Assembly: GCA_963782915.1 (NCBI GenBank)
Contig: CAWALK010000022.1
Span: forward strand, 265,098-329,097
DNA: 64,000 nucleotides
Source of the DNA: an uncultured archaeon
GTDB taxonomy: Archaea; Thermoproteota; Bathyarchaeia; Bathyarchaeales; Bathycorpusculaceae
Direction of reading: 5' to 3'
In this document: positions 1 to 25,363 of the stretch, one piece after another
Layout: each line of letters starts with the position of its first letter
How positions within the stretch are numbered: position 1 is the first letter of the stretch
Translations under genes and position numbers: made by a program
The notes under the pieces: model-generated
Told to the model about the DNA's origin: nothing
What the model saw: the letters and a program-made list of their open reading frames with translations, nothing else
The model's database searches: none

Positions 1-328
1 AGCCACCACACTACTCGAAGTCGCAGCCGTCAACGAACTCCAAGTCACCAAACTCAACCCCCAACAAGCCATCCTACTCGGCTACCACCCCGGGCTCCAA
101 AAGAAAGCTATCATCACCTACACCACCAGCCACGGCCTAAAAGTCTGGTACTGGCACGACAACCCAGAAGAAATCACCGACACAGCATTCCTGAACCAAA
201 CAAGGCAATACCTGATTGACATCGCCAAAGAAAGAGGAATAGAAATCGAAGGCTGGGAAAAAATCCATCCAGCAAAACTGGCGCATATGGTTTTTAGCAA
301 GTTAATCCCGGAGTTAACCAACCAATGA
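1..328 (+). CDS. C-terminal part of a putative archaeal HTH transcriptional regulator (5' end outside window)
   Basis: Open frame from nt 2, not in the ORF track: ATTLLEVAAVNELQVTKLNPQQAILLGYHPGLQKKAIITYTTSHGLKVWYWHD...AKERGIEI...PAKLAHMVFSKLIPELTNQ*. TGA 326-328 overlaps the next ATG (ATGA). Resembles, from memory, the regulator that precedes DUF1673 arrays in Methanosarcina. Confidence 0.6.
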   Translation, partial: ATTLLEVAAVNELQVTKLNPQQAILLGYHPGLQKKAIITYTTSHGLKVWYWHDNPEEITDTAFLNQTRQYLIDIAKERGIEIEGWEKIHPAKLAHMVFSKLIPELTNQ

Positions 329-1052
329 ACACCAAAAGAAGTCTACAGAATCGAATCAGAGGATGGTATCCGCAAGAACCCGCATTAAGCATTATAAAAA
401 ACGCCAGTTCAAAGATGAAAAGAAGAATGACAACTGGGCCCTATGCCCATACTTGGTACCGGGAGCTTTAATGATTTTTGCAGCCCTATTATCAGCAAAC
501 TTTGGACTAACCCTTGTATCCGTGTATGTACAAGGATTTCCTGCAGGAGACACCGTTTTTTACTCAGGTCTCTACATTGGAATCTTGAGCGTAAGCGGGT
601 TTATTTTAGGATTAATCTGCGGAGGTCTCCTGTTAGCGGGAAAGCGCATACACATAGCGGTAACAGGCATAGCTATAATATTCTGTTTTGGGCTTGCGAC
701 GATCATTTTACCAACATTGGAGGGCTTAGGATGGACGAGCGGTTTAATTGTGGCTTCGCCAATGATTGCCTTTCCTGTTATATCGTTAATCCAAGTAGGA
801 TTAAATTCTAAGAAGCTCAAAGCATATAACGCCATTCAGGAACCTAAGCTAACAATCGAAGTGGAATCGCCAATCAATCGAAGACCGGTGGCCGCTGGAT
901 TAGGCGCTGCTGGTTGCGGATTCATCTTAGTAGGATTACTAGTATATTTTATGGCACCCATATTCCCCGGAATGATAAATTCAATTCTGATTGTCACAGG
1001 GGTTTGCTTACTTGTGGTAGCGTACCTCGAAAAGAGAACATACAAACACTGA
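325..1052 (+). CDS. Multi-TM membrane protein with N-terminal RGWYPQEP motif (one frameshift, ~390-440)
   Basis: ATG 325 gives MNTKRSLQNRIRGWYPQEPALS. The hydrophobic body continues in the frame of ORF 363..1052 (~6 TM). Confidence 0.7.
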
Positions 1053-1064
1053 GGCATATAACCG

Positions 1065-1328
1065 ATGAGAAGAACAGAGCCACCGTGTATAGAGACAAAA
1101 GCTAAATTGGACAAGAAAATGCGCAAAGCAGGCATGGCTGCGAATTCAGTGTTATACTTGGGGTTTGGGGGCGTCTACTTTTTGGTAGCTCAACCTGCCT
1201 ATCACTATGACGTGAGCTTGGAAGTGACTACTTTGACTTTAACCAGCTTTGTGGTAACGTTAGCTGCCGTTAATTTTGCGATTTATAGACACTACAAACA
1301 GCGAATACTGACTAAAGGGAGGATTTAG
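1065..1328 (+). CDS. Small 2-TM membrane protein (array member lacking the RGW motif)
   Basis: 87 aa ORF with two hydrophobic stretches, tightly packed in the operon. Confidence 0.6.
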   Translation: MRRTEPPCIETKAKLDKKMRKAGMAANSVLYLGFGGVYFLVAQPAYHYDVSLEVTTLTLTSFVVTLAAVNFAIYRHYKQRILTKGRI

Positions 1329-1330
1329 AG

Positions 1331-1879
1331 ATGGGGTTAAAGCAGCGTTCAAAAGAATTCTTCAGGGGCTGGTTTCCACAAGAACCGATGTTACCAAGAG
1401 GCTTCACTTCAAACTCATCAAACCTTGAGGGCAATACTCTGCCCACCGAAAAAGAGTTCATGTCTCTTCGATTGCAACACAAAAAAATCTACATTCCCGT
1501 TGCCGCCTTCTTCCTGTCAAGCATGATGCTTTGTCTTTATTTGCTGATTAACCGATTAATCGACGAAGAATTAGCATTCGCAGGTCTGATGACAATTCTA
1601 ATTGGGCTGCTTTACAATGGCCTTGCATTGGACGTTTACATAAAGAGAAAAACGGCTCTGCGCGCTACGATTGACAAGATGGTCTTGCCCGTCATCACCA
1701 GCGCAACTCTAGCTATCGCCGGTCTTTGGATTTTAGCCAGTGCAAATCTAGTAAGCTTCAAGGATCTTGCTTTCCCGATTTTAATCATTGGTTTTTCAGT
1801 TTACGCATATCATTTTATCGTTGATTCTTCGGCTAAATCGAAGATACGTCAGCAAAAGCGAGCGGAGTTACGATTATGA
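1331..1879 (+). CDS. 4-TM membrane protein with N-terminal RGWFPQEP motif
   Basis: MGLKQRSKEFFRGWFPQEP; hydrophobic segments; ATGA overlap with the next gene. Confidence 0.8.
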   Translation: MGLKQRSKEFFRGWFPQEPMLPRGFTSNSSNLEGNTLPTEKEFMSLRLQHKKIYIPVAAFFLSSMMLCLYLLINRLIDEELAFAGLMTILIGLLYNGLALDVYIKRKTALRATIDKMVLPVITSATLAIAGLWILASANLVSFKDLAFPILIIGFSVYAYHFIVDSSAKSKIRQQKRAELRL

Positions 1880-2973
1880 ATGAAAAGAAAAACCTGTGGT
1901 CGCACCTCAGAGGCTGGTTCCCTCAAGAACCAGTTCTAAAAGTTCCTCAGATTCATTTCCTCATAAAACAGTCCAGTAAACCGTGGAATCTGAGCAAAAA
2001 CATCAGTAGTTTCTTTTATGGACAATTATTGCTTGGTTCATTCATCATAAACTTGTTCATGGTTAGTTCAACAAACGAATTTCTTGCCCTTATCTTGTCC
2101 TGCTTCATAGTTGCATTCATTGGGATAACTGTTTACAATTTACGAAAATACCACGGATTACAAGATTTACTCAGCGGCGGTTTGTTTGCAGCGTCTATTG
2201 GAGTAGTAATTGTCAGTGCCTTCCTTTTTTCGCTTAAGACCTTAAGCGCAACGAACAGTATAATATTAGTAATTTTCAGTATGGCTGTTTTTACAATATT
2301 ATATGCTCTGGTACAAAGTGCTGGGAAGATAGGAATACGCCTTCCCCATAAGGCAATGGTTTTTTCTCTTGCTTTAATCGGCATTATCGCTCTCGTGCCA
2401 TCATTATCTGTAGCTTATCATGACGAAGACAAAACCGAAGTAACCCATCAACAAAATATTTTCAGCGAATATTTCAATCTAAGTAGACAACTTCCCGATG
2501 AAGTCGTCAACATCAACTTGACCACCGCTGACAAAATTGAGATTGACATGACCAAACAGCATGGCGCAAACGTAGACTCTTATGCCAGCATTGTTTTTAC
2601 GGTTAGTGACCGGAATCTAAGTTCCAGCGCAAAAATCTATTTTTCTTCAAACACCATCGACAGCTGGTTTACTCAAACTTGGACTCCACCCCAAAACGGA
2701 ACTTACGTGTTCACCCTTCATTTTAATCATATAGCCTCAAATTACGTTTGGGTAGGTGTAACTAGGGTTTGGTCAACGATTGAAATGAGACCATCGGTGG
2801 TTGCAAGGCCTCTGCTTGCCCAGTTCATGGCACCCACATTGATTCTTGCAGCTGCTTTACTCGCCGCTAGTGTCGCAATTCCAATCCGAAGCCTCAAAGG
2901 ACCAAACTTCAGAGGGGCAATTAAGCAGAAATGGAAGGAGACATGGTTGCAATGGAAAAAAAGCTATTTCTAA
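1876..2973 (+). CDS. Multi-TM membrane protein with extracellular beta-rich domain and N-terminal RGWFPQEP motif
   Basis: MNEKKNLWSHLRGWFPQEP; ~5 TM, then a soluble domain (WTPPQNGTYVFTL) and a C-terminal TM. Confidence 0.8.
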   Translation: MNEKKNLWSHLRGWFPQEPVLKVPQIHFLIKQSSKPWNLSKNISSFFYGQLLLGSFIINLFMVSSTNEFLALILSCFIVAFIGITVYNLRKYHGLQDLLSGGLFAASIGVVIVSAFLFSLKTLSATNSIILVIFSMAVFTILYALVQSAGKIGIRLPHKAMVFSLALIGIIALVPSLSVAYHDEDKTEVTHQQNIFSEYFNLSRQLPDEVVNINLTTADKIEIDMTKQHGANVDSYASIVFTVSDRNLSSSAKIYFSSNTIDSWFTQTWTPPQNGTYVFTLHFNHIASNYVWVGVTRVWSTIEMRPSVVARPLLAQFMAPTLILAAALLAASVAIPIRSLKGPNFRGAIKQKWKETWLQWKKSYF

Positions 2974-3317
2974 GGGCCATCATTAGAGGTTGGCTTCCAA
3001 AGGATCAATCTTTCCAAAACATAGCCTGTGAAACCAAGAAGCCAACAAAGATTAACCAAAGCCCAAAAAATAACGAAAACGAAGACAGACCCATGACGAA
3101 GGGACAGATAAGAGCATTAACAGTACTGGGCATAGCGAACATAATTATGCTTATCAGTTACTCAAGCTATCTTGTCATCTACCTGATTACGCCCAGCCTT
3201 TGGAGCTCTACGCTCGGTTTCAGCTTGTGGGTTTTTATTGTGTTCTCACTGCTTTTCGTTAACTTTTTGCTGTACATGAACTACAAGAGGCAGACAAGAA
3301 TGGCGGAGGGTGTGTAA
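2952..3317 (+). CDS. 2-TM membrane protein with N-terminal RGWLPKDQ motif
   Basis: ATG 2952 gives MEKKLFLRAIIRGWLPKDQ, which places the motif at residue 12 as in the neighbours. Confidence 0.75.
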   Translation: MEKKLFLRAIIRGWLPKDQSFQNIACETKKPTKINQSPKNNENEDRPMTKGQIRALTVLGIANIIMLISYSSYLVIYLITPSLWSSTLGFSLWVFIVFSLLFVNFLLYMNYKRQTRMAEGV

Positions 3318-3319
3318 GA

Positions 3320-3622
3320 TTGGATTTGGATCGCTTGCAGAATCGTCTCAGAGGCTGGCTTCCCAAAGAGCCAACGCTCCAAGTCCATCAAACACGGATA
3401 GACCAAGAGAATTCGCTTATGGTTCGATGGATGGCAAGAGCCATTGTTGTGGGGGCCGTTGCAAGCGGATTGCTGGGAGTTTTCGGGGCAGAGGCAGGTT
3501 TAGACCGCGGAGTCGGCGGATATGCTTGGTCCACGTTAGTGATAGTAATTGCTCCAGTTGCAGTGGCGGTTGCCGCTGTTTTTGGCAAACGAAAAATGAA
3601 GCAGCAAAAGCGGACTTGGTAA
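3320..3622 (+). CDS. 2-TM membrane protein with N-terminal RGWLPKEP motif
   Basis: TTG start after GGAGG; MDLDRLQNRLRGWLPKEP. Confidence 0.75.
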   Translation: MDLDRLQNRLRGWLPKEPTLQVHQTRIDQENSLMVRWMARAIVVGAVASGLLGVFGAEAGLDRGVGGYAWSTLVIVIAPVAVAVAAVFGKRKMKQQKRTW

Positions 3623-3631
3623 TGTCTGAAG

Positions 3632-5845
3632 TTATTGCTTAATTGTTATTTCGAATTTTGCGCCCTTATTGGGTAAGCCGTTTTCTTGTATTGACCAACC
3701 GTAAACTTCAACCATTTTTTTGATAAGACGCAAACCTAAACCTGAACCGTTGCCTGTAGTGAAGCCTTCTGTGAAAAGCTTCGGCTTATTAACCTCCGAT
3801 ATGCCAACGCCGTTGTCCTCATAGAACAGTTTTACGCCGCCGTCTTCAAGTTTGGCGAAATGCACTTTTATCTGGGTTACTTTTACGCCATGCTTCAACG
3901 AATTATCTAAGAGGTTATAGAAGAGTTGTCTTAGCAGCGAATCAGCCATCACCGATAAGCCCCCGAATTCATTAACGATTTCTACTCCAACCAGATTTGG
4001 CATCAGAGAAACTGCCTCGTTGAAGCATTCCTCAACATTAACTTGCGTTAACTGTTCAGCACCGATTTTCTCGTATAATCGGCTAAATTCAAGCAGCTTA
4101 TCCGATGAATTAACGGCTGCGTTGATTGAATCAAGATACTTCGCCAATTCGGAGTCGTTGGCAACGCGTTTTTTTAGCAAGTAAACATTAGCGCTTATGA
4201 TTGAGAGCTTATTTTTTACGTCATGGCGGGTTAAGCCACCGACGACGCGGAGTTTTTCATTCATTGTTCGTATTTTTCGGCTGCTTTCTTTGAGTTCCTC
4301 TTGAGCTCTCTTGTGTTGGCTTGTATCGCGTATTATCATGCTTACACTTGAGTTACCGTTGGGTTCCGTGAAGCGGGTGGATGTTAGGTCTCCTTCGAAT
4401 TCGGATCCGTCTTTGCGCCTAAAGGTTAACTCGGCTTTGGCTTGACCTGTTGTCTCACGTTCCCTAATAGCAGATTTGGCTCGGTCGTCAAGAACCATTA
4501 TGCCATCGCGGCCAACTTGGGTAAGTTCTTGTTCATTCCAGCCGAACATGCGACAAGCCGTGGGGTTAGCAGAAACAATTTGGCCAGATGGCTTCATGAG
4601 CACAACAGCGTCGTAGCTGTTGTCGTAGAGGGCTCGGAAATGCTCTTCACTGCGCCTAAGTGCTTCTTCAGCCCTCTTACGCTTCGTTATGTCACGTTCC
4701 ATAGAGAGGAACCAAATGTCCGAGCCAATCTTCACAGCCTTTACAGAAGCCTCAACATCAATGGTTGAACCGTCTTTTCGCCGTTGTGTTGTTTCAAAGG
4801 AATACTTGTTTTTTAGTTTAAGATTTTGAACTAGGCGTTCAGTTTTTGGCATGTCTGCTGAATCATCGATAAAAGAGATTGGTTTACCGATTAACTCATC
4901 TTTTGTGTAACCGAGAGCACGGAGGGCTGCAGAGTTGGCGTCGTGAATGATTGGAAGCTTACCGAAGGGAATCTCCATCAGCAGTATGTAGTCGGCGGCT
5001 TGCTCAAACAGTGCCCGGTATCGTTCTTCGCTAATCCGCAAAGCTTCCTGAATGAGTTTACGCTCGCTTATGTCTCGTTCAATAGCAATTGCCCAGATTT
5101 CCGACCCAAAATTTATGGCTTTAATGTGCACTTCAACGTTAAACAATGAGCCATCCTTTCGTTTATGAAAGGTTTCGAAGTGGACTGATTTGCCCTGTTT
5201 AACGTCACAAGCGATTTGGTTTATTTTTTGCTCATCAAAATAGCCGTCGACATATGTTATTGGTTTCCCGAATAGTTCATCCATTGAGTAGCCATGAACA
5301 TTCAAGGCTGCTGTGTTTGCATCCCGTATTATAGGCGGACCATCAGTGGGATACTCTAACACTAAAATATAATCTGCAGCCTGATCCATCAACGCCCGAT
5401 AATGCTTCTCACGCTCTTCTAAGGCATGTTTGGTTCTACGTTCATCTGTAACCATTTTTATGCCATGAACAAGTTCGCCGAAAACAGTTTCGGTCGAGCC
5501 ATGCTTGTTATAGTATCCGTCGGCTCCTAGATTTAGAGCGGTTATCGCGACCTCTTCTCGGCCCTTGCCAGTGAATAACATAAAGGCAACATCGTTTTTT
5601 TGGCTACGCAACTCTTTGAGAAATTGCAAGCCATCCTTCTGGGGCAATTCGTAATCACATACGATTACATCGTAGGGTTTTGTTTTGATTTTCTCTGAGG
5701 CTTCTTCGGCGTTCAATGCGCAATCGACTTCAAAGTCGCCGCTGATTTTTATTATCTGTTTTGAGATCAGCAAAAAGTCAGAGTCATCGTCAACAAACAA
5801 AATACGAATCGGGGTTGGCGAAGAAAAGGTCTTGGTATTATTCAT
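3632..5845 (-). CDS. Hybrid sensor histidine kinase (REC-PAS x3-HisKA-HATPase)
   Basis: ILFVDDD...VCDYELP receiver; three PAS/PAC repeats (RKDGS...ERDI); RHDVKNKL H-box; NLLDNSLKHG, DNGVG and GSGLGL boxes. Confidence 0.93.
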   Translation of the reverse strand: MNNTKTFSSPTPIRILFVDDDSDFLLISKQIIKISGDFEVDCALNAEEASEKIKTKPYDVIVCDYELPQKDGLQFLKELRSQKNDVAFMLFTGKGREEVAITALNLGADGYYNKHGSTETVFGELVHGIKMVTDERRTKHALEEREKHYRALMDQAADYILVLEYPTDGPPIIRDANTAALNVHGYSMDELFGKPITYVDGYFDEQKINQIACDVKQGKSVHFETFHKRKDGSLFNVEVHIKAINFGSEIWAIAIERDISERKLIQEALRISEERYRALFEQAADYILLMEIPFGKLPIIHDANSAALRALGYTKDELIGKPISFIDDSADMPKTERLVQNLKLKNKYSFETTQRRKDGSTIDVEASVKAVKIGSDIWFLSMERDITKRKRAEEALRRSEEHFRALYDNSYDAVVLMKPSGQIVSANPTACRMFGWNEQELTQVGRDGIMVLDDRAKSAIRERETTGQAKAELTFRRKDGSEFEGDLTSTRFTEPNGNSSVSMIIRDTSQHKRAQEELKESSRKIRTMNEKLRVVGGLTRHDVKNKLSIISANVYLLKKRVANDSELAKYLDSINAAVNSSDKLLEFSRLYEKIGAEQLTQVNVEECFNEAVSLMPNLVGVEIVNEFGGLSVMADSLLRQLFYNLLDNSLKHGVKVTQIKVHFAKLEDGGVKLFYEDNGVGISEVNKPKLFTEGFTTGNGSGLGLRLIKKMVEVYGWSIQENGLPNKGAKFEITIKQ

Positions 5846-5857
5846 CGGTTATTACTA

Positions 5858-6172
5858 TTACCTACCTTGTAATGGGACCAAGTTGACCCCATGATTGATT
5901 TCTTCTGCTGAAACCCGTGCACCCTCAGAGAGGTACCTAAAGACACGAATTCCTCGGGAGGTATTTTTGTATACTATGCCATTGCTGACACTTCTTGGTT
6001 GTACCAGACGTTGCTGTTCTAAGAATTTCATTGCAGCTGACAGAATTGGTCTATCGATTTTTGTTATGCCCTGAATCGCTTTGATATTGAGCGATTGTGC
6101 TTCCCCTAGAGTCTTGAGTACTTCGACATAAAGCTCTAATCTGGATTGTTTTTGGTTGCTCAAGTCTTTCAC
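5858..6172 (-). CDS. Archaeal winged-helix DNA-binding protein
   Basis: SRLELYVEVLKTL...LEQQRLV...YKNTSRG pattern. Confidence 0.7.
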   Translation of the reverse strand: MKDLSNQKQSRLELYVEVLKTLGEAQSLNIKAIQGITKIDRPILSAAMKFLEQQRLVQPRSVSNGIVYKNTSRGIRVFRYLSEGARVSAEEINHGVNLVPLQGR

Positions 6173-6468
6173 AGACTCTCGTATGGCTGTTGTACAATTA
6201 AATGATTATGTGTGTGTGCCTCTCCACTTACAGGCAAGCGATGAATCAAAAGCTAAGCGGCCCCCAAAATTAGGTTGCAACAGCAAGCAATCACTCATAT
6301 GTTTACCATACCAAAAAGTTCCCCCGCTTTTAGAGGTTTCTTACCAAAAAGCTAGCCGTTAGAGAGTAGCCTCAACGTTTTTTTGCCATAAAAATTGGCA
6401 TAATATAGAACGACACAACAGAATTGGGACTAAACATTTCACCGATCAATCCGTCTGGCTTCGTTCAT

Positions 6469-7737
6469 CTACAGCTTTAGTGCTTCGCCCTCTTGCCAAA
6501 GACTCTCAAAAGCCCTACGCAATATACCCACATGCATCTGATCATTAGTCCACAGGAAACGAGCATTCATTTTTCCAGATTTAGTTTCGCCCCAAAGCGC
6601 TTCTTTTCGGTCAACCACAAGCAGCTTGAACGGAGTCTTATCCACACACTTTAGATCAACGCTGCAGTTGGCTTTGGATGATAATAAGCGAAGGCGTCTT
6701 AGAAAATCAGTGTAATCCGTTGAATCCACATCCGCTAAATCGCCTTTGTTTATGATGGTGCGAATTTCCATTTGCCCCTCAGTCGGGTCTTCCTTTGATT
6801 TTGCAATAAGGATTTTTTCTAACTCATCCGTGGAAGCAGTGAACATCAGGGAGTTGCGTGTTTTCTTAATCATCTGGGCAATGCGTTTTTCAACATTATC
6901 CTGACGAGCTAATGCTTCTATGGTGTTCTCTTCATAGACGCCAAAAGAAGTATTCGATAATCGAGAGATAAGATCATCTTTTTTCAGCTTGAGTGCGTCT
7001 ATCTCTCGTTTCATTATGTCTGTTTTCACTTTTTCCAGGAGTTCAACAGAAGTTAATGGATCGGTTGCCATGAATCTTCGAGGCGCATCCAGTTTGCTGG
7101 TAACGATTCCAGTTTCTTCTAATTCGGGTAGGATGCGGTAGACTTCTTCTCGTCGAATTTTAGATAGTGAAGCAATCTCTGAAGCAGTTGCTGCTCCCAA
7201 GACGTTTAGTGCTATGTAGATTCGGGCTTTGGTTTTGTTGAGGCCGAAACTGGCGAATATTGTTGCGATTTCATCGGCGAATTTGTTGTATTCGTTTAAT
7301 TGGACTTTGCTGATTCTTAGTTTGACCCATTGGTCGAGGTTTTTTTCTGTGCGTGTTTTTTTGTCGCGTTCTTGAAGTCGGTCTTTAATGTTTTTGAGCA
7401 GTATGGTGAAGTCGACTGGTTTTGTGAAGAATGCGTTGGCGCCTGTGTTGAGTGCTTTTATGGCGTTTTCTGTGGAGGCTTGACCTGACACCATGATTTT
7501 TACGGATGTTGGGTCGCTTTTTTGTAGTTCAGCGAGCAATTCGGTGCCTTCCATGTCGGGTAGGCGTATGTCGATGAGGAATACATCGAAGTAGGCTGTT
7601 TTTGCTTTTGCTAGGGCTTCTTGGGCGGTGGCGGCTGTGTCAGTTATGTATCCTTCAAGTTGCAAGATTTTTGAGAAAACCCGCAGTATATCGGTGTCAT
7701 CGTCTATTATGAGTATTCGGTATGATCGTTGGGTCAT
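6469..7737 (-). CDS. Response regulator fused to a TrmB-family transcription factor
   Basis: N-terminal REC (ILIIDDD, IDIRLPDMEG, FTKP); TrmB wHTH (FGLNKTKARIYIAL...IRREEVYRILPELEETG); C-terminal effector domain (LVVDRKEAL, WTND). Start taken at MTQRSY. Confidence 0.85.
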   Translation of the reverse strand: MTQRSYRILIIDDDTDILRVFSKILQLEGYITDTAATAQEALAKAKTAYFDVFLIDIRLPDMEGTELLAELQKSDPTSVKIMVSGQASTENAIKALNTGANAFFTKPVDFTILLKNIKDRLQERDKKTRTEKNLDQWVKLRISKVQLNEYNKFADEIATIFASFGLNKTKARIYIALNVLGAATASEIASLSKIRREEVYRILPELEETGIVTSKLDAPRRFMATDPLTSVELLEKVKTDIMKREIDALKLKKDDLISRLSNTSFGVYEENTIEALARQDNVEKRIAQMIKKTRNSLMFTASTDELEKILIAKSKEDPTEGQMEIRTIINKGDLADVDSTDYTDFLRRLRLLSSKANCSVDLKCVDKTPFKLLVVDRKEALWGETKSGKMNARFLWTNDQMHVGILRRAFESLWQEGEALKL

Positions 7738-8105
7738 AGATACTAATCCTTGAAGCCTTGCAGCCATGCCATGGGTTACAGACAGGAGAGCAGTAGCACG
7801 TCTTTCGCCTTAAGATACATATAATACTTGTTGTCAAAAATTAACCATAGAAGCAGGAAAATCAACGTAAAAACAGGCATGATTGAGCTAAATGACTAGT
7901 TTTTGGTGCTGAGGTTTGGATTTGGAGTCTTATGAACAGGTGGGGCTCTTTTGTTGTTCTTGTTTGTTTTTTCTATAGCAGATAATGGCGGGAGCGCCTA
8001 TACTCTTCTTCCTGTGACCTTGGCGTGGCGGCTGCTTTTCAGTTTCTGCGTTTTGTGACGATTGCACGCTGGTTGTGCAGACTTCCTCAACCAGAACGGC
8101 TACTT

Positions 8106-9394: not shown

Positions 9395-9607
9395 ATGCAA
9401 GATATGCTTAGTTATAGGGTAATAATAGAGAAAGACGAAGACGGCGTCTTTGTCGGCAGGGTTCCAGATTTACCTGGTTGTGCTACCGAGGGAAAAACAC
9501 GAGAGGAGCTTATGAAAAATGTTAAGGAAGCAATCCAGGCATATCTTGAAGCTCTAAAGCAGCATGGCGATCCAGTGCCGATTGAAACGGTGCAAGTCAG
9601 TGTCTAA
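9395..9607 (+). CDS. hicB: HicB-family antitoxin
   Basis: YRVIIEKDEDGVFVGRVPDLPGCATEGKTREELMKNVKEAIQAYL. Confidence 0.9.
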   Translation: MQDMLSYRVIIEKDEDGVFVGRVPDLPGCATEGKTREELMKNVKEAIQAYLEALKQHGDPVPIETVQVSV

Positions 9608-9856
9608 ATTAGCATCTGTCGATTATGATAAGGCAATTAAGGTTCTTCTAAAGATTGGTTATGCTGTTACCCATCAGAAAGGCAGTCATGTAGTTATGCG
9701 GCTCGTGGATAGTCAGAAGTATATTTCTTTGTTTGGCTGTAGAAAAAACGAGACTATGGTGGTTATTCCAGCACATAAGCCACTTGGAAAGGTATGCTTC
9801 GCACTATTATCAAAGAAATTGATCTTTCAGTTGAGGAATTCAACAAGCTTCTTTGA
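9600..9856 (+). CDS. hicA: HicA-family mRNA interferase toxin (1-nt frameshift at ~9790)
   Basis: GTG 9600 gives MSKLASV...GYAVTHQKGSHVVM...VVIPAHKPLGK, then GMLRTIIKEIDLSVEEFNKLL* in the adjacent frame. Confidence 0.85.
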
Positions 9857-9908
9857 GCACTCCGACTGATTATTCACTTGATGTTAATTTTTTTAAAAAG
9901 TAGTGTAA

Positions 9909-23085: not shown

Positions 23086-24414
23086 TTGCCCCCAGTTTTA
23101 CACCTAACACCCATAGAGGTGGATACCGACGAGAAACGCTCAAAAATCAGCGTTGCCGTCGTCGGATGTGGGCACAAAGGAATCTTTTATGCCAACGCCT
23201 TTGCAGACGCAGGCTACAGAGTAATCTGCACGGATGCTGATGCTAGCGTTGTTAAGAAAATAGCAAAAGGGAAAACTGGGTTTGTAAACCCTGAAGCTGA
23301 AGCCAAACTAAAAAGCCACATAGCATCCGAAAAAATTGATGTTACAAGCGAACGCAAAAAAGCTGTTTCTCAAAGCGACATAATAGTCATAGCCATCACC
23401 GCCAAGGTGGATGAGCAGAAAAAGAACGATTACACAGGCGTAATCAGCACCAGTAAACAGGTTGGGGCAGCCATGCATCAAGGTACGCTTGTGATTTACG
23501 GTGGCATCGCAGGTTTAGGCTTCACTGAGGGAACAATGAAGGAGCTGCTGGAGAATACTTCTGGGTTTAAAGCTGGAATCGATTTCGGTTTAGCATACAG
23601 CCCCATCCTAAACGCCACTGTTTCGCTTGGGGATTTGGAGCTTAAGGTTGCAGCAACTGACCAAACCAGCCTCGAAGCCGCAGCCACCATCCTTAGAACC
23701 CTAACAAGTAACGTACGGGAAGTCAGCGACCTAAAAACCGCAGAAACAGCCGCACTATTCACAGTTGCCAAACAGGACGCAGCAACCGCATTAACCAACG
23801 AATTAGCAGTGTTCTGTGAAACAGCAAAAATCGACTACTTCAAAGTCCTCGACACCCTCAACCTAAACAACCCAAGTTTCCGCCCAACCATCGCCGAAGA
23901 AGAAAACAAAAATGAAGCCTACCTCCTACTCGAAGCAGCCGAAAACTTAAACGTTAAACTTAAAGTTGCAGCATTATCCAGACAAATCAACGAGGACATG
24001 GTTAAGCACGCTGTGAATTTGACGCAGGAAGGGCTGCGAAACTGTGGCAAAAGTTTGCGGCGGGTGAAAGTAGCTGTTTTAGGTCCAGTAACTCCAGCTT
24101 CAGATGCGAGCGCTTTTGTAGCGTTGCTTGAGCAGAAAGGCGCCAAAGTAGCGCTCTATGATCCAACCTCAAAGAAGGAAACACTGGATTCAGATGCAGT
24201 TAGATCAAATCTTAATGAGGCTGTGGAAGGCGCTGACTGCATCGTTGTGTTATCAACTAAGGAACAGTTTAATCATTTGAACTTAAAGAAGCTCAAAGCA
24301 TTGACAAAGAATCCTGCGGTTATTGTGGATTTAGTTGGCAAATTTGAGCCTGCGCAGGTGGAAACAGAAGGATTCATATATTCTGGATTGGGAAGAGGAA
24401 CTGACCAGAAATGA
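23086..24414 (+). CDS. Nucleotide-sugar dehydrogenase homologue (WecC/WbpA-like) lacking catalytic motifs
   Basis: GCGHKG Rossmann motif; LENTSGFKAGIDFGLAYSP; family C-terminal domain. No GGxC motif. Confidence 0.8.
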   Translation: MPPVLHLTPIEVDTDEKRSKISVAVVGCGHKGIFYANAFADAGYRVICTDADASVVKKIAKGKTGFVNPEAEAKLKSHIASEKIDVTSERKKAVSQSDIIVIAITAKVDEQKKNDYTGVISTSKQVGAAMHQGTLVIYGGIAGLGFTEGTMKELLENTSGFKAGIDFGLAYSPILNATVSLGDLELKVAATDQTSLEAAATILRTLTSNVREVSDLKTAETAALFTVAKQDAATALTNELAVFCETAKIDYFKVLDTLNLNNPSFRPTIAEEENKNEAYLLLEAAENLNVKLKVAALSRQINEDMVKHAVNLTQEGLRNCGKSLRRVKVAVLGPVTPASDASAFVALLEQKGAKVALYDPTSKKETLDSDAVRSNLNEAVEGADCIVVLSTKEQFNHLNLKKLKALTKNPAVIVDLVGKFEPAQVETEGFIYSGLGRGTDQK

Positions 24415-25363
24415 CTAAACTTGGCGTTGCAGTTATCGGAACGGGGCAGTGGGGTAAAAACCACGCCAGAGTCTACAAAGAATTACCTTCGACTGAACTT
24501 GTGGCAGTATGTGACGTTAATGCTGAGCGAGCAAAAGCGATGGCACAGCAGTATGGTGTCAAAGCCTACTCAGACAGCACCGAGATGCTCAAAGACAAAG
24601 ACATCCAAGCCGTAAACGTCTGCACATGGTCCACGATTCTTAGCTCAGGAAGCTATGAAGGTACTAAACGCAGGCAAACATGTGCTTGTCGAGAAACCCA
24701 TGGCAACCAACCCCGAACAGGCACGACAACTTGTTAAAACCGCCGAAGAAAACGGTCTTCACTTAACCGTTGGCTTCCTCATGCGTTTCATCCCCGGATT
24801 GCAACATATCCGCCAATCAGTTGAGAACAAAAAAATCGGCGAACTCGTCTGCGTCACCGCAAAACGCGTCTCCCAATGGCCCGAACGCATAGGCGACGTC
24901 GGAGTCGTCAAAGACACCGCAATACACGACATAGACGTCATGCGCTATCATATCCAAACAAGACCCAGTCTCTGTCTACGCTAAAATGGGCAGCAAAAGA
25001 ATACAGAAATTCGAAGACTACGCCCACATAATGCTCACCTACGAAAACGGCGAATCCGCATTCATCGAAACCAACTGGCTAACACCCTACAAAACCCGCA
25101 CACTCATCGCCACAGGCACTGAAGCCATAATGCGCCTAGACTACAACACACAAGACTTCTGGATAGAAGAAAAAACCCAAAGCATCCAACCACGGCTGCC
25201 ATTCCAAGAACCCCTAAAAGCCGAGCTTCAACACTTCGTCGACTGCATCGTAGAGAAAAAGAAGCCCATAGTAACAGGTGAAGACGGCGTCAAAGCCTTA
25301 GAAGTAGCCACTGCAGCAATGGAGTCCTCTGCCAAAAACACAGCGGTACAATTAAAAAGATAA
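24411..25363 (+). CDS. Gfo/Idh/MocA oxidoreductase (UDP-sugar 3-dehydrogenase-like; two frameshifts)
   Basis: GTGQWGKNHAR, GKHVLVEKP, VGFLMRF, DTAIHDID, EPLKAEL. Confidence 0.88.

Follow-up and report, generated by a model that had tools for sequence, protein, structure and literature searches.

A putative Tfx-like regulator gene and a variable array of N-terminally tagged membrane protein genes form a Bathyarchaeia-specific cassette

The window, i.e. the whole stretch of 64,000 nucleotides analysed here, opens with the 3' two-thirds of a Bathyarchaeia-specific cassette, in which a promoter containing a 20-bp inverted repeat precedes gene A and a variable array of membrane protein genes. All but one of the six membrane genes at 325-3622 begin with the tag pattern M-x10-RGW[FLY]P[QK][ED]. 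The membrane proteins are putative sensors, and A is predicted to grip their tag. The best reading, which we consider probable with moderate confidence, is that A acts as a Tfx-like autoregulator and that a universal tag on the cytoplasmic side captures it at the membrane. If true, this would be an undescribed wiring of many membrane sensors to one gene switch, and no description of such a tag and regulator cassette was found in print. The features are listed below; the window coordinates of the two interface segments of A are a hand count from the numbering of the A copy in locus L026.

2-328, + strand: gene A, 3' part only (last 108 codons and the TGA at 326-328; full-length relatives P0003 and P0004).
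140-169, + strand: A codons KVWYWHDNPE, first half of the predicted tag-binding surface (L026 residues 100-109, in the predicted interface).
266-295, + strand: A codons HPAKLAHMVF, second half of the predicted tag-binding surface (L026 residues 142-145, 147-148 and 151 in the predicted interface).
325-1052, + strand: gene B, frame broken by a 1-nt indel; tag end in frame 1 (325-471), body with about 6 spans in frame 3 (to 1052).
325-381, + strand: tag 1, MNTKRSLQNRIRGWYPQEP (regex and ORF reading).
1065-1328, + strand: gene C, 87 aa, about 2 hydrophobic spans, tag-less; a paralogue of a tagged subfamily that includes F.
1331-1879, + strand: gene D, 182 aa, about 4 hydrophobic spans; tag 2 at 1331-1387, MGLKQRSKEFFRGWFPQEP (relatives P0081 and P0095).
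1876-2973, + strand: gene E, 365 aa, about 6 spans; tag 3 at 1876-1932 (ORF, hydropathy, AF2 model).
2952-3317, + strand: gene F, 121 aa from ATG 2952, about 2 hydrophobic spans; tag 4 at 2952-3008, MEKKLFLRAIIRGWLPKDQ.
3320-3622, + strand: gene G, 100 aa, TTG start, about 2 hydrophobic spans; tag 5 at 3320-3373.

A six-frame regex search of the whole window returned six RGW.P matches. Five of these lie in the array (nt 358, 1364, 1909, 2985 and 3350), exactly where the preliminary description had placed them, and the sixth, at 24715, is an antisense chance hit and not an array member. The motif had been put at residue 11-12: the arginine is residue 12 in the four tagged ORFs starting with ATG (325, 1331, 1876 and 2952) and residue 11 in gene G, the last one, which starts with TTG at 3320 and has one residue fewer ahead of RGW. 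The overlapping or nearly abutting arrangement behind a putative regulator was likewise recovered. The A stop and the B start share ATGA at 325-328, D and E overlap by an ATGA at 1876-1879 and E and F by 22 nt; the remaining gaps are 12 nt (B to C) and 2 nt (C to D and F to G).

The tag, with the consensus MNvKKSLENRIRGW[FL]P[KQ]EPxLP and a length of 19-22 aa, defines a large family without prior annotation. In the profile check proposed earlier, the five window N-termini retrieved 157 cluster representatives at E<=1e-3 from 1.84 billion proteins. Among the best 150 representatives, 146 contain [RKQ]GW[FLYI]P within the first 70 residues, and the arginine is residue 12 in 132. N2, K5, S6, E8, N9 and I11 vary among the five query N-termini, yet they are strongly conserved across the profile hits. 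Tag columns are 80-100 % conserved, compared to a mean column identity of 5 % over the whole-length alignment.

Selection acts on the tag peptide and not on the DNA. In the window, the 5' ends have a mean column identity of 61 % with synonymous differences, as had been noted before, and the same is seen in 91 tags from related loci: the invariant G13, P16, R12 and P19 are each spelled by 4-6 codons, with a third-position information of 0.04-0.6 bits. These observations bear on the possibility that the array came about by ordinary lineage-specific expansion of a single membrane family distantly related to DUF1673, its N-terminus kept by descent and 5'-end gene conversion without a dedicated partner, perhaps serving as polymorphic cassettes for immunity or defence. 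In L007 and L031, a breakpoint of duplication or recombination falls within the tag, which fits this explanation. However, the freedom of the third codon positions shows that the tag is not maintained by gene conversion, the DNA copies of the tag in the window are only 64-73 % identical over 44 nt, and the contrast between conserved tag columns and divergent whole-length sequences also speaks against it. Recombination at the conserved 5' end, which had been suggested as a means of diversifying immunity cassettes, has one clear example as an evolutionary process.

The membrane proteins have basic N-terminal regions of 35-55 aa, followed by approximately two (C, F, G), four (D) or six (B, E) hydrophobic spans according to hydropathy. 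Basic N-termini and even span numbers fit a cytoplasmic tag. Beyond the tag, the proteins had been called unrelated. This is true for most of the 15 body pairs in the window, but C and F are similar (E 2e-4), D and F are marginally so (E 0.02-0.03), and bodies form subfamilies across the family: 142 bodies fall into 35 single-linkage components, of which two have 52 and 42 members. Such clustering fits a lineage-specific expansion, as do the sub-threshold DUF1673 match of P0091 (E 1.2e-4) and the DUF1673 identity of its nearest Atlas clusters (0.94 and 0.93). The Pfam cut-off for DUF1673 was, in turn, reached by none of 146 representatives scanned, and only two matched at E<=1. Neither PADLOC nor PHROGs matches nor a toxin domain were detected, so that the proposed immunity function finds no support. 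As the expansion reading also leaves the invariant A partner and the predicted interface without explanation, we regard a lineage-specific expansion alone as very unlikely.

Two genes of the array deviate from the common layout. Residue 10 of gene C aligns to residue 33 of the tagged P0070 and P0103 (E 2e-10 and 4e-9; 23-residue offset), so by alignment C is a tag-less paralogue of a tagged subfamily of about 105-112 aa that includes F. The array of six membrane genes comprises five tagged genes and one member that lacks the tag. The frameshift reported for the first copy was reproduced: the frame of gene B changes near nt 413-415, whereas P0007, a close relative, reads ...NASSK/YEKKNDNWALCP... 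in a single frame; P0093, P0087 and P0066 are relatives of its body. In the AF2 model of gene E (pLDDT 66; sandwich blocks 70-90), an extracytoplasmic beta-sandwich at residues ~179-312 separates five membrane helices from a sixth helix. Foldseek matched this sandwich to CBM, GOLD and PPC-type sandwiches, and the same module is also fused behind a 4-span module in P0040, P0099, P0104 and L011.

A genome scan with the tag DNA pattern returned 50 stretches. The 6 bacterial ones are close to the approximately 4 calculated chance matches; among the 44 archaeal ones, 43 are titled Bathyarchaeota or Bathyarchaeia and one Nitrososphaeria. The archaeal loci hold 125 tagged ORFs in arrays of 1-9, and the start codon lies exactly 11 codons ahead of the arginine in 101 of the 125. 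As the loci are 8-kb pieces, the values for array length and turnover are approximate or minimum values. The linkage of motif and regulator, suggested as a check, is strict: A was seen in 37 of the 44 archaeal loci, tagged genes are always downstream of A on the same strand, and the first tagged ATG overlaps the A stop as ATGA in 37 of the 38 cassettes that are available with the window included. Exceptions are L030, a lone tagged ORF without A within 8 kb, and L050, where a 592-nt gap replaces the overlap. No further conserved gene besides A was found in the cassette neighbourhood. The variable repertoire proposed earlier is also evident, as array content turns over fast while A stays conserved: A has a mean identity of 73 % over 253 locus pairs, and only 9 % of the tagged genes have a homologue in the other locus of a pair.

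About 160 aa long, A combines an HTH of the GerE/LuxR type with a long helix and an alpha/beta domain that is conserved. Its HTH domain and promoter sit upstream of the window. The window fragment gave 33 hits spanning most of the fragment at 62-86 % identity, and four locus copies of A are cut by the locus end. In the AF2 model of the L026 copy (pLDDT 86), the HTH matches GerE, CviR, VpsT, LiaR and RcsB with a probability of ~1 over 42-61 columns in a Foldseek-type structure comparison. A reached the cut-off of no Pfam or NCBIfam family, with Pfam GerE sub-threshold in 23 of 26 sequences (best E 0.005), and its alpha/beta domain is without a database match. K, V, W, Y, W, H and P of KVWYWHDNPE are invariant in 26 of 26 sequences, as are P143, A144, L146, A147 and F151 in the HPAKLAHMVF segment.

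Directly upstream of A, a TATA-like box and the start codon flank the 20-bp inverted repeat GTAAAyA-N6-TrTTTAC. Of the 33 loci holding the 5' end of A, 31 have the repeat in this form and the remaining two have it with one mismatch. No copy was found within the 64 kb of the window, the promoter of A being outside. An operator for autoregulation is the simpler reading of this conserved palindrome. This bears on a different role for A, in which it is an adaptor or scaffold: a putative dimer bound to two tags would bring the membrane proteins together in mixed assemblies, or would anchor the locus DNA at the membrane while transcription, translation and insertion proceed in a coupled manner. The ATGA overlap of A and the first tagged gene suggests coupled translation, the Tfx-family protein EnfR is a dimer (PMC10570040), and the docking evidence given below would serve this role equally. 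Nevertheless, the oligomeric state of A is an assumption here and the palindrome has the simpler reading, which makes a scaffold decidedly improbable.

The docking of the tag on the C-terminal domain of the regulator, as proposed before, was predicted in silico. The modelled complex of A and tag had ipSAE values of 0.62, 0.75 and 0.75 (median 0.75), compared to 0.01 for the best of three controls (range 0.00-0.01). Of the solved complexes, 58 of 80 attained this mark, as did 2 of 110 mismatched pairs, counts that are only rough because own alignments were used. The runs share at least 66 % of contacts, with a partner pLDDT of at least 49; the partner fold in the complex is uncertain (pLDDT about 50). 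The complex tool itself presents such a result as support for binding, not as proof. The model was built with the A copy of L026, which is 86 % identical to the window fragment, and the first tag of L026, while the window tags entered only as alignment rows. Tag residues 11-18 are predicted to contact A residues 100-109 and 142-151, an interface that takes in the invariant A columns (KVWYWHDNP, HPAKLAH) together with G13, W14 and P16, which are invariant in the tag.

Tag residues 1-10, which equal 11-18 in conservation, lie outside the confident interface, so that part of the tag conservation is unaccounted for. The high conservation of residues 2-10 could point to a biogenesis or turnover signal, i.e. 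membrane targeting, N-terminal processing or degradation, read by host machinery outside the cassette, with A acting only as the transcription factor of the operon and not touching the tag. N-terminal signals typically sit at a fixed distance from Met1, as the tag does in 132 of 146 representatives and in 101 of 125 locus ORFs, and in the AF2 model of gene E, residues 2-14 form a helix followed by a disordered linker. On the other hand, the tag is followed by a hydrophilic linker (median 25 residues) instead of the hydrophobic core of Sec, Tat and pilin-type signals, and gene C and its relatives have the same membrane body with and without the tag. In addition, A is the sole gene invariably linked to the tag, and the predicted complex brings the invariant residues of both partners together, with the controls at 0.00-0.01. 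A biogenesis signal is therefore unlikely, though not negligible.

Under the preferred reading of membrane capture, an A dimer would bind the inverted repeat and thereby control its own operon, and its C-terminal domain would grip tag residues 11-18, so that the membrane proteins could hold A at the membrane and off the operator. The variable transmembrane and extracytoplasmic parts would set when the tag is accessible. Since the operon makes several tags per A, simple titration would never release A from sequestration, unless access to the tag is gated. What we infer is the binding of A to the repeat, its sequestration, the direction in which it regulates and a sensed signal; the result would be a switch with one regulator and many tethers, resembling anti-sigma/sigma or Mlc-PtsG sequestration. 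From the preliminary description, the peptide-level tag, the linkage, the docking as a prediction and the turnover are retained, the ECF comparison is kept as an analogy, and the immunity function is not retained.

Among known systems, DUF1673 (arCOG06827) is a membrane protein expansion in Methanosarcina (PMC4158269; PMC4390880), and 'MGWCP motif, DUF1673' is entered in Table 2 of PMC4158269. The GWCP-type N-terminus ascribed to these arrays earlier is thus borne out in print. Both are archaeal lineage-specific expansions of small multi-span membrane proteins with G-W-x-P near the N-terminus, and DUF1673 has no assigned function either. It occurs in another phylum, however, and the tag described here is longer (19-22 aa) and common to many unrelated bodies. 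In P0091, residue 13 (the G of RGW) falls onto profile position 11, but the ~205-aa, 4-span subfamily that it represents has PF07895 on none of the 74 hits of its profile, and the window proteins had no DUF1673 match at E<=1.

The Tfx family, with EnfR/TON_1525 (PDB 8HNO) and MTH0916, comprises archaeal DNA-binding proteins (PMC10570040). A resembles them in its size of about 140-160 aa and in its layout of an N-terminal sigma-70 region 4/GerE HTH, then a long 'stem' helix and, at the C-terminus, an alpha/beta domain without a known ligand. The pseudo-palindrome bound by the EnfR dimer in a promoter parallels the conserved palindrome in the promoter of A, and the Atlas neighbours of A at 0.86-0.88 are Tfx clusters. 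In contrast, the predicted head of A has four consecutive strands and then helices, whereas that of EnfR is described as beta-alpha-alpha-beta-beta (PMC10570040). Foldseek gave a probability of only 0.41-0.57 and a TM of 0.25-0.35 against 8HNO and 8HNP, TFX_C (PF14601) was matched by none of 26 A sequences at E<=10, and no peptide partner is known for Tfx.

GerE/LuxR-type output proteins typically bind inverted repeats of ~20 bp as dimers. The tetra-helical HTH of A superposes on these output domains (GerE 1FSE/6JQS, CviR, VpsT, LiaR, RcsB) with a probability of ~1 and, for CviR, VpsT and RcsB, an rmsd of 0.5-0.7 A over 42-44 columns. Here, A differs in lacking a receiver or autoinducer domain and in having a C-terminal partner domain without a match, with Pfam GerE only sub-threshold.

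In ECF sigma/membrane anti-sigma and Mlc-PtsG systems, a membrane protein holds a DNA-directed factor. The likeness to ECF pairs drawn earlier is useful as an analogy and does not extend to membership: in both, a soluble DNA-directed factor is encoded beside membrane proteins, whose cytoplasmic N-terminus is here proposed to hold it, and the HTH of A is related to sigma region 4. Sigma factors are not known to be used by archaea, and A was rejected as one, as it has a single GerE/sigma-region-4-like HTH in a Tfx-like layout and no sigma region 2. The domain search detected no anti-sigma domain in the membrane proteins. Moreover, instead of a dedicated 1:1 pair, the cassette would connect one regulator to 1-9+ interchangeable partners via a short tag.

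Positions 1 to 3622 of the window hold, on the forward strand, the 3' end of a gene for a putative DNA-binding regulator, called A here, followed head to tail by six small genes (B to G) for membrane proteins. Five of these begin with a peptide of about 19-22 amino acids that carries the motif RGW[FLY]P, referred to as the tag.

Genes of the array in the window
2-328, forward strand: gene A, 108 codons, its 5' end beyond the window edge
325-471, then in another frame to 1052, forward strand: gene B, with tag, frameshifted
1065-1328, forward strand: gene C, without tag
1331-1879, forward strand: gene D, with tag
1876-2973, forward strand: gene E, with tag
2952-3317, forward strand: gene F, with tag
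3320-3622, forward strand: gene G, with tag, TTG start

Neighbouring genes are joined by an ATGA overlap at A/B and D/E and by a 22-nt overlap at E/F, or separated by 2 nt at C/D and F/G and by 12 nt at B/C. A six-frame regular expression search of all 64 kb returned six RGW.P sites, namely the five already named in the preliminary description and an antisense chance match at 24715. The arginine of the motif is residue 12 in B, D, E and F and residue 11 in G. According to hydropathy, the window proteins have basic and hydrophilic N-terminal stretches of 35-55 residues, approximately two hydrophobic spans in C, F and G, four in D and six in B and E, and basic C-termini, a pattern that fits a cytoplasmic location of both protein ends. 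None of the seven proteins A-G had a match above the cut-off in Pfam or NCBIfam.

The frameshift reported for the first tag copy, in B, lies near 413-415, and the related cluster representative P0007 runs through this region in one frame. A programmed -1 frameshift at A_AAA_AAC (396-402) was considered and rejected, as P0007 stays in frame 1 past this run and switches to body sequence about 12 nt after it. For this reason, the break in B is a 1-nt indel, due either to a pseudogene or to an assembly error. A second candidate of this kind is a GFO/IDH/MocA-type oxidoreductase at 24411-25363 on the forward strand, whose sequence is apparently divided among three successive ORFs that differ in frame:

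24411-24737, forward strand: ORF with the N-terminal domain
24655-24984, forward strand: middle ORF
24986-25363, forward strand: ORF with the C-terminal domain

Together, the two cases suggest either assembly indel errors or several real pseudogenes.

The bodies behind the tags had been described as unrelated. This holds for 13 pairs of window proteins, while the C and F bodies are similar (E 2e-4) and the D-F pair is marginal. Residue 10 of C aligns to residue 33 of the tagged representatives P0070 (E 2e-10) and P0103 (E 4e-9), which are about 105-112 aa long, and C is a paralogue of these and of F that lost its tag. Its N-terminus, MRRTEPP, may retain just the last residues of the former tag.

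A profile built from the five 30-residue N-termini of the window was scored against 1.84 billion cluster representatives (clusters at 50% identity) and matched 157 proteins at E<=1e-3. Among the best 150, 146 have [RKQ]GW[FLYI]P between residues 1 and 70, with R exactly at residue 12 in 132, and the remaining four (P0006, P0008, P0016 and P0074) are repeat proteins or internal matches. The consensus of the aligned matches is M-N-v-K-K-S-L-E-N-R-I-R-G-W-[FL]-P-[KQ]-E-P-x-L-P, in which G, W and P of the motif are invariant in all 141 aligned sequences. These matches resemble one another far more than the five copies in the window do. When residues 1-40 of D were used as the query of a word-indexed search, D itself was the only candidate, an uninformative outcome; the large size of the family emerged with the later profile.

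The 146 tagged representatives range from 39 to 549 aa, and a crude hydropathy count gave no span in nine, 1-4 spans in 115 and 5-10 in 22, with a median linker of 25 residues between the tag and the first span. A Pfam domain above the cut-off was present in only one, P0047, which has a C-terminal zinc ribbon. Once the tag was removed, single-linkage clustering by BLAST placed 142 bodies in 35 components, two of them large (52 and 42 members) and 24 singletons. Bodies of many types, some grouped into subfamilies, therefore share the tag.

The proposal that selection acts on the peptide, based on synonymous codon variation in the motif, was confirmed with 91 different coding sequences of the tag, taken from the window and from related loci. 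G13, P16 and P19, all invariant, are encoded by four codons each, and the invariant R12 by six, drawn from both codon families. The third positions carry 0.04-0.6 bits of information compared to 2.0 bits at positions 1-2. The idea that a nucleic-acid element, RNA or DNA, is conserved in place of a peptide was rejected owing to these free third positions, the lack of an Rfam match in window positions 1-4000 at E<=0.1, and the low identity of 64-73% over 44 nt among the tag DNA copies of the window.

The distribution of the tag was determined by scanning 185,579 species genomes with the pattern R-[hydrophobic]-R-G-W-[FL]-P-[KQ]-E-P, for which about four chance matches are expected by our own arithmetic. 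The scan yielded 50 stretches of 8 kb (L001-L050), of which 43 carry a Bathyarchaeota or Bathyarchaeia title, one carries a Nitrososphaeria title and six are bacterial. No motif match with a start codon at the right distance was present in the six bacterial stretches. The 44 archaeal stretches stem from 37 assemblies, as counted from record names, and contain 125 motif ORFs, 101 of which have a start codon exactly 11 codons before the R. Each stretch has between one and nine tagged ORFs; 14 have one only, and the largest have 7, 8 and 9.

A was detected in 37 of the 44 archaeal stretches by tblastn with the A fragment of the window and the full-length representatives P0003 and P0004. It always lies upstream of the tagged genes on the same strand, and no tagged gene was found upstream of it or on the opposite strand. 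The stop codon of A and the ATG of the first tagged gene form an ATGA overlap in 37 of 38 cassettes including that of the window, the exception being L050 with a 592-nt gap. In five of the seven archaeal stretches without A (L018, L022, L029, L044 and L046), the first visible tagged gene starts less than 400 nt from the edge, so that A could not have shown. The absence of A is ambiguous in L038, and L030 has a lone tagged ORF of 68 aa with no A within 8 kb. The copy of A at L016:2150-2668 on the reverse strand is interrupted by stop codons and shifts of frame, both in its HTH region and in part of its C-domain. A 203-aa tagged gene still lies behind it, and the cassette may be decaying.

That the array is a plain expansion of paralogues, or a set of immunity cassettes, whose tag persists through descent or conversion is very improbable, and both the codon data and the invariant A partner run counter to it. 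An immunity array diversified at a conserved 5' end had been offered as an alternative in the preliminary description. It found no backing in the window: the array proteins gave no match in PADLOC or PHROGs and no toxin domain in Pfam, and the divergence of the tag DNA copies is at odds with the DNA-conserved 5' ends expected of cassette exchange, although one recombination junction in the tag was found at another locus.

No conserved gene was found upstream of A among 42 flanking ORFs scanned. These are varied: one encodes a phage-type terminase, and the others are unknown, as many are, or housekeeping genes, among them those for an arginyl-tRNA synthetase, a histone deacetylase and an M42 peptidase. 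In the window, a hybrid REC-PAS x3-HisKA-HATPase kinase, a small winged-helix protein and a REC-TrmB regulator are encoded at 3632-7767 on the reverse strand, convergent to the array. The kinase (3632-5845) and the REC-TrmB gene (6469-7767) were considered as parts of the system and rejected, since just 2 of the 44 archaeal loci have similar genes nearby. They are thus placed outside the cassette, and their adjacency is probably coincidental. A small ORF at 9564-9869 on the forward strand matches the HicA toxin family with 28.5 bits at a Pfam cut-off of 27 bits.

The regulator itself comprises about 160 aa, with a mean column identity of 65% in an alignment of 26 sequences and the invariant segments K-V-W-Y-W-H..P and P-A.L-A...F. 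The AlphaFold2 model of the L026 copy (pLDDT 86, pTM 0.77) has helices at 13-23 and 28-34, a long helix at 39-63, four strands (67-103) and helices at 114-130 and 143-159. Its HTH shows a strong structural likeness to that of GerE/LuxR proteins: Foldseek matched it to GerE, CviR, VpsT, LiaR and RcsB in the PDB with a probability of about 1 over 42-61 columns. The corresponding Pfam family (PF00196) is matched by 23 of the 26 sequences, all below the 23.5-bit cut-off (best 16.9 bits, E 0.005), and one source labels P0003 a 'DNA-binding CsgD family transcriptional regulator'. The whole model gave no Foldseek match at E<=0.001 and the C-domain none at all, so the latter may be a new peptide-binding fold. 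Two representatives carry parts of A in other contexts and may be assembly chimeras or real fusions: P0005 (525 aa), a fragment of DNA polymerase III alpha, closes with approximately 35 residues that are the C-terminal end of A, and P0002 (243 aa, on a 1.1-kb contig) has the C-domain behind an unrelated, HTH-less N-terminal region.

Upstream of A, a TTAAATA-like box is followed by the inverted repeat GTAAAyA-N6-TrTTTAC in all 23 regions listed, with one mismatch in two of the 23 copies. The repeat ends 2-19 nt before the start codon of A. Two examples are:

L026:3775-3821: promoter-like region with box and repeat, directly upstream of A
L010:800-847: promoter-like region with box and repeat, directly upstream of A

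With a looser regular expression, the repeat adjoins A in 31 of 33 loci that include the 5' end of A, and seven further matches lie elsewhere, six of them with other spacing. The same expression found no repeat in the 64-kb window, where the cassette promoter lies beyond the left edge. A promoter and terminator scan of positions 1-3800, of the sigma-70 type and unsuited to archaea, returned counts at the level of the shuffled control. A GerE-type protein that represses its own operon as a dimer would need a 20-bp palindrome in just such a place, behind the TATA box and ahead of the start codon, and we infer that A binds the inverted repeat of its own promoter.

The interaction of A with the tag was modelled by complex prediction, with full-length A (alignment headed by the L026 copy) and a 30-residue tag (90 rows, including the five of the window) as input. 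The three runs reached ipSAE values of 0.62, 0.75 and 0.75 (median 0.75), compared to 0.01 for the best of three controls. The mark used for ipSAE is reached by 58 of 80 solved complexes and 2 of 110 mismatched pairs, counts that hold only roughly here because own alignments were used. The runs agree in at least 66% of contacts, and the partner pLDDT is at least 49, which leaves the partner's own fold uncertain. On the tag side, the interface comprises residues 11-18 (I-R-G-W-F-P-Q-E), and on the A side residues 64, 90, 100-109, 111, 116, 120, 123, 142-145, 147-148 and 151, with segments corresponding to window nt 140-169 and 266-295. It thereby takes in invariant residues of both partners. 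We know of no similar solved complex, so it seems unlikely that the predictor merely reproduced one. The model favours binding of the tag by A, at the level of a prediction. Tag residues 1-10 are also conserved, for no apparent reason.

The best-supported reading, and probably the correct one, is a self-contained switch. At the palindrome, A would repress or otherwise control its own operon. Its C-domain would be captured by the cytoplasmic tags on the membrane proteins encoded with it, and the variable membrane and outer parts of these proteins would set the timing of capture. Since several tags are made per A, access to the tag must be gated somehow. Alternatively, the tag could be a signal for host machinery with A merely the regulator of the operon, which is rather unlikely, or A could be a scaffold or a coupler of DNA and membrane, which is quite unlikely. 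If docking is true, the switch would be a compact and experimentally tractable signalling module consisting of a 160-aa protein, a 20-bp operator and a 22-aa peptide, in which many interchangeable membrane partners share one short tag and one regulator. It would also provide a testable function for a large set of 'hypothetical' membrane proteins. Tag flavours differ by lineage (MNPKKYLEN... in L007, L020, L030, L031, L041 and L048; MNVKKSLEN... in L003, L016, L021, L024, L028 and L033) and seem to track subgroups of A (ANDLQ/TNQ.FLRQT vs VNDLQ/TDTAFLNQT), which could be co-evolution or merely shared ancestry.

The variable repertoire expected from the window was borne out by comparing 253 locus pairs, in which homologues were defined by E<1e-5 over at least half the length. 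A has a mean identity of 73%, yet only 9% of tagged genes have a homologue in the other locus, a figure that is approximate due to the 8-kb stretches and the ORF filter. Even where A is 80-90% identical, the shared tagged fraction is 24%, likewise approximate, and the shared bodies are about 51% identical. The membrane-protein modules are shuffled. The E-type module (5 spans and a beta-sandwich) is fused behind a 4-span module of about 205 aa in three representatives and one locus:

L011:3443-5044 (with P0040, P0099 and P0104): modular fusion of the tag, a P0091-type, DUF1673-like 4-span module and the E-type module, 489-549 aa

The extracytoplasmic domain of E is predicted as a beta-sandwich (pLDDT 66 for the whole model, 70-90 for the sandwich blocks) with a likeness to carbohydrate-binding, GOLD and PPC domains, which is compatible with ligand binding but not specific to it.

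On one chromosome, OY970176.1, two cassettes (L007:6053-7180 and L031:1169-1811) are 99.7% identical over 593 nt, from the promoter through A to nt 52 of the tag. Past this stretch, the L031 gene follows the second gene of L007 with 90% identity over 103 nt. A junction created by duplication or recombination therefore lies within the tag.

A broader reading, held tentatively, is that of plug-and-play signalling in Bathyarchaeia, in which tag capture, tag spread by recombination and a parallel with DUF1673 are joined. A universal N-terminal docking tag of 19 aa would hold a single Tfx-like repressor at the membrane, and recombination at the tag-coding 5' end could confer this tag on any membrane protein. 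The membrane sensors that feed the one transcriptional switch would thus form a repertoire that changes fast and is particular to each lineage. The spread by recombination draws on the L007/L031 junction, which lies exactly there, with the promoter-A-tag head copied as a unit. In peat, soil and sediment, few uncultured archaea are as abundant as the Bathyarchaeia, and to our knowledge next to nothing has been learned about their means of sensing the environment. As part of the same tentative reading, this architecture would have no described counterpart. The main texts of the openly accessible papers searched yielded no published description of the cassette.

Compared to known systems, the likeness to an ECF sigma/anti-sigma system drawn in the preliminary description does not extend to membership: A has one HTH and no match to sigma-70 region 2, and the window membrane proteins match no anti-sigma family at E<=1. 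With the Tfx family, A shares a sigma-70 region 4/GerE-type HTH, a long helix and a C-terminal alpha/beta head, and its Atlas neighbours at 0.86-0.88 are Tfx clusters. However, none of 26 A sequences matches TFX_C (PF14601) at E<=10, and the Foldseek matches to 8HNO and 8HNP are weak (probability 0.41-0.57, TM 0.25-0.35). The Tfx protein EnfR, as described in PMC10570040, has an HTH, a stem helix and an alpha/beta head ordered beta-alpha-alpha-beta-beta, whereas the head of A is predicted as four strands followed by helices. A is therefore Tfx-like in design and not a demonstrated member.

The DUF1673 family carries an 'MGWCP' motif according to Table 2 of PMC4158269, and it also appears in a list of superclusters in PMC4390880. 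Its G-W-C-P differs from the invariant G-W-[FL]-P of the tag family, in which C is replaced. No window protein matches DUF1673 (PF07895) at E<=1; two of the 146 tagged representatives do, and none reaches the gathering score of 30.4 bits (best P0091, 22.5 bits). The nearest Atlas clusters of P0091 are DUF1673 (0.94 and 0.93), a recognition below the mark of the tool, and a profile search with its subfamily found 74 proteins, none carrying PF07895 and all those named by their source being 'hypothetical' or generically labelled. The distant relationship with DUF1673 is thus a lead and not a result. If the broader reading is true, the DUF1673 expansion in Methanosarcina would follow the same principle in a second phylum, and the tag function may extend to this long-orphan family. 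The membrane capture of a transcription factor is known as such. The logic of a shared tag is unusual, and the proposed binding domain is without a match among solved structures.
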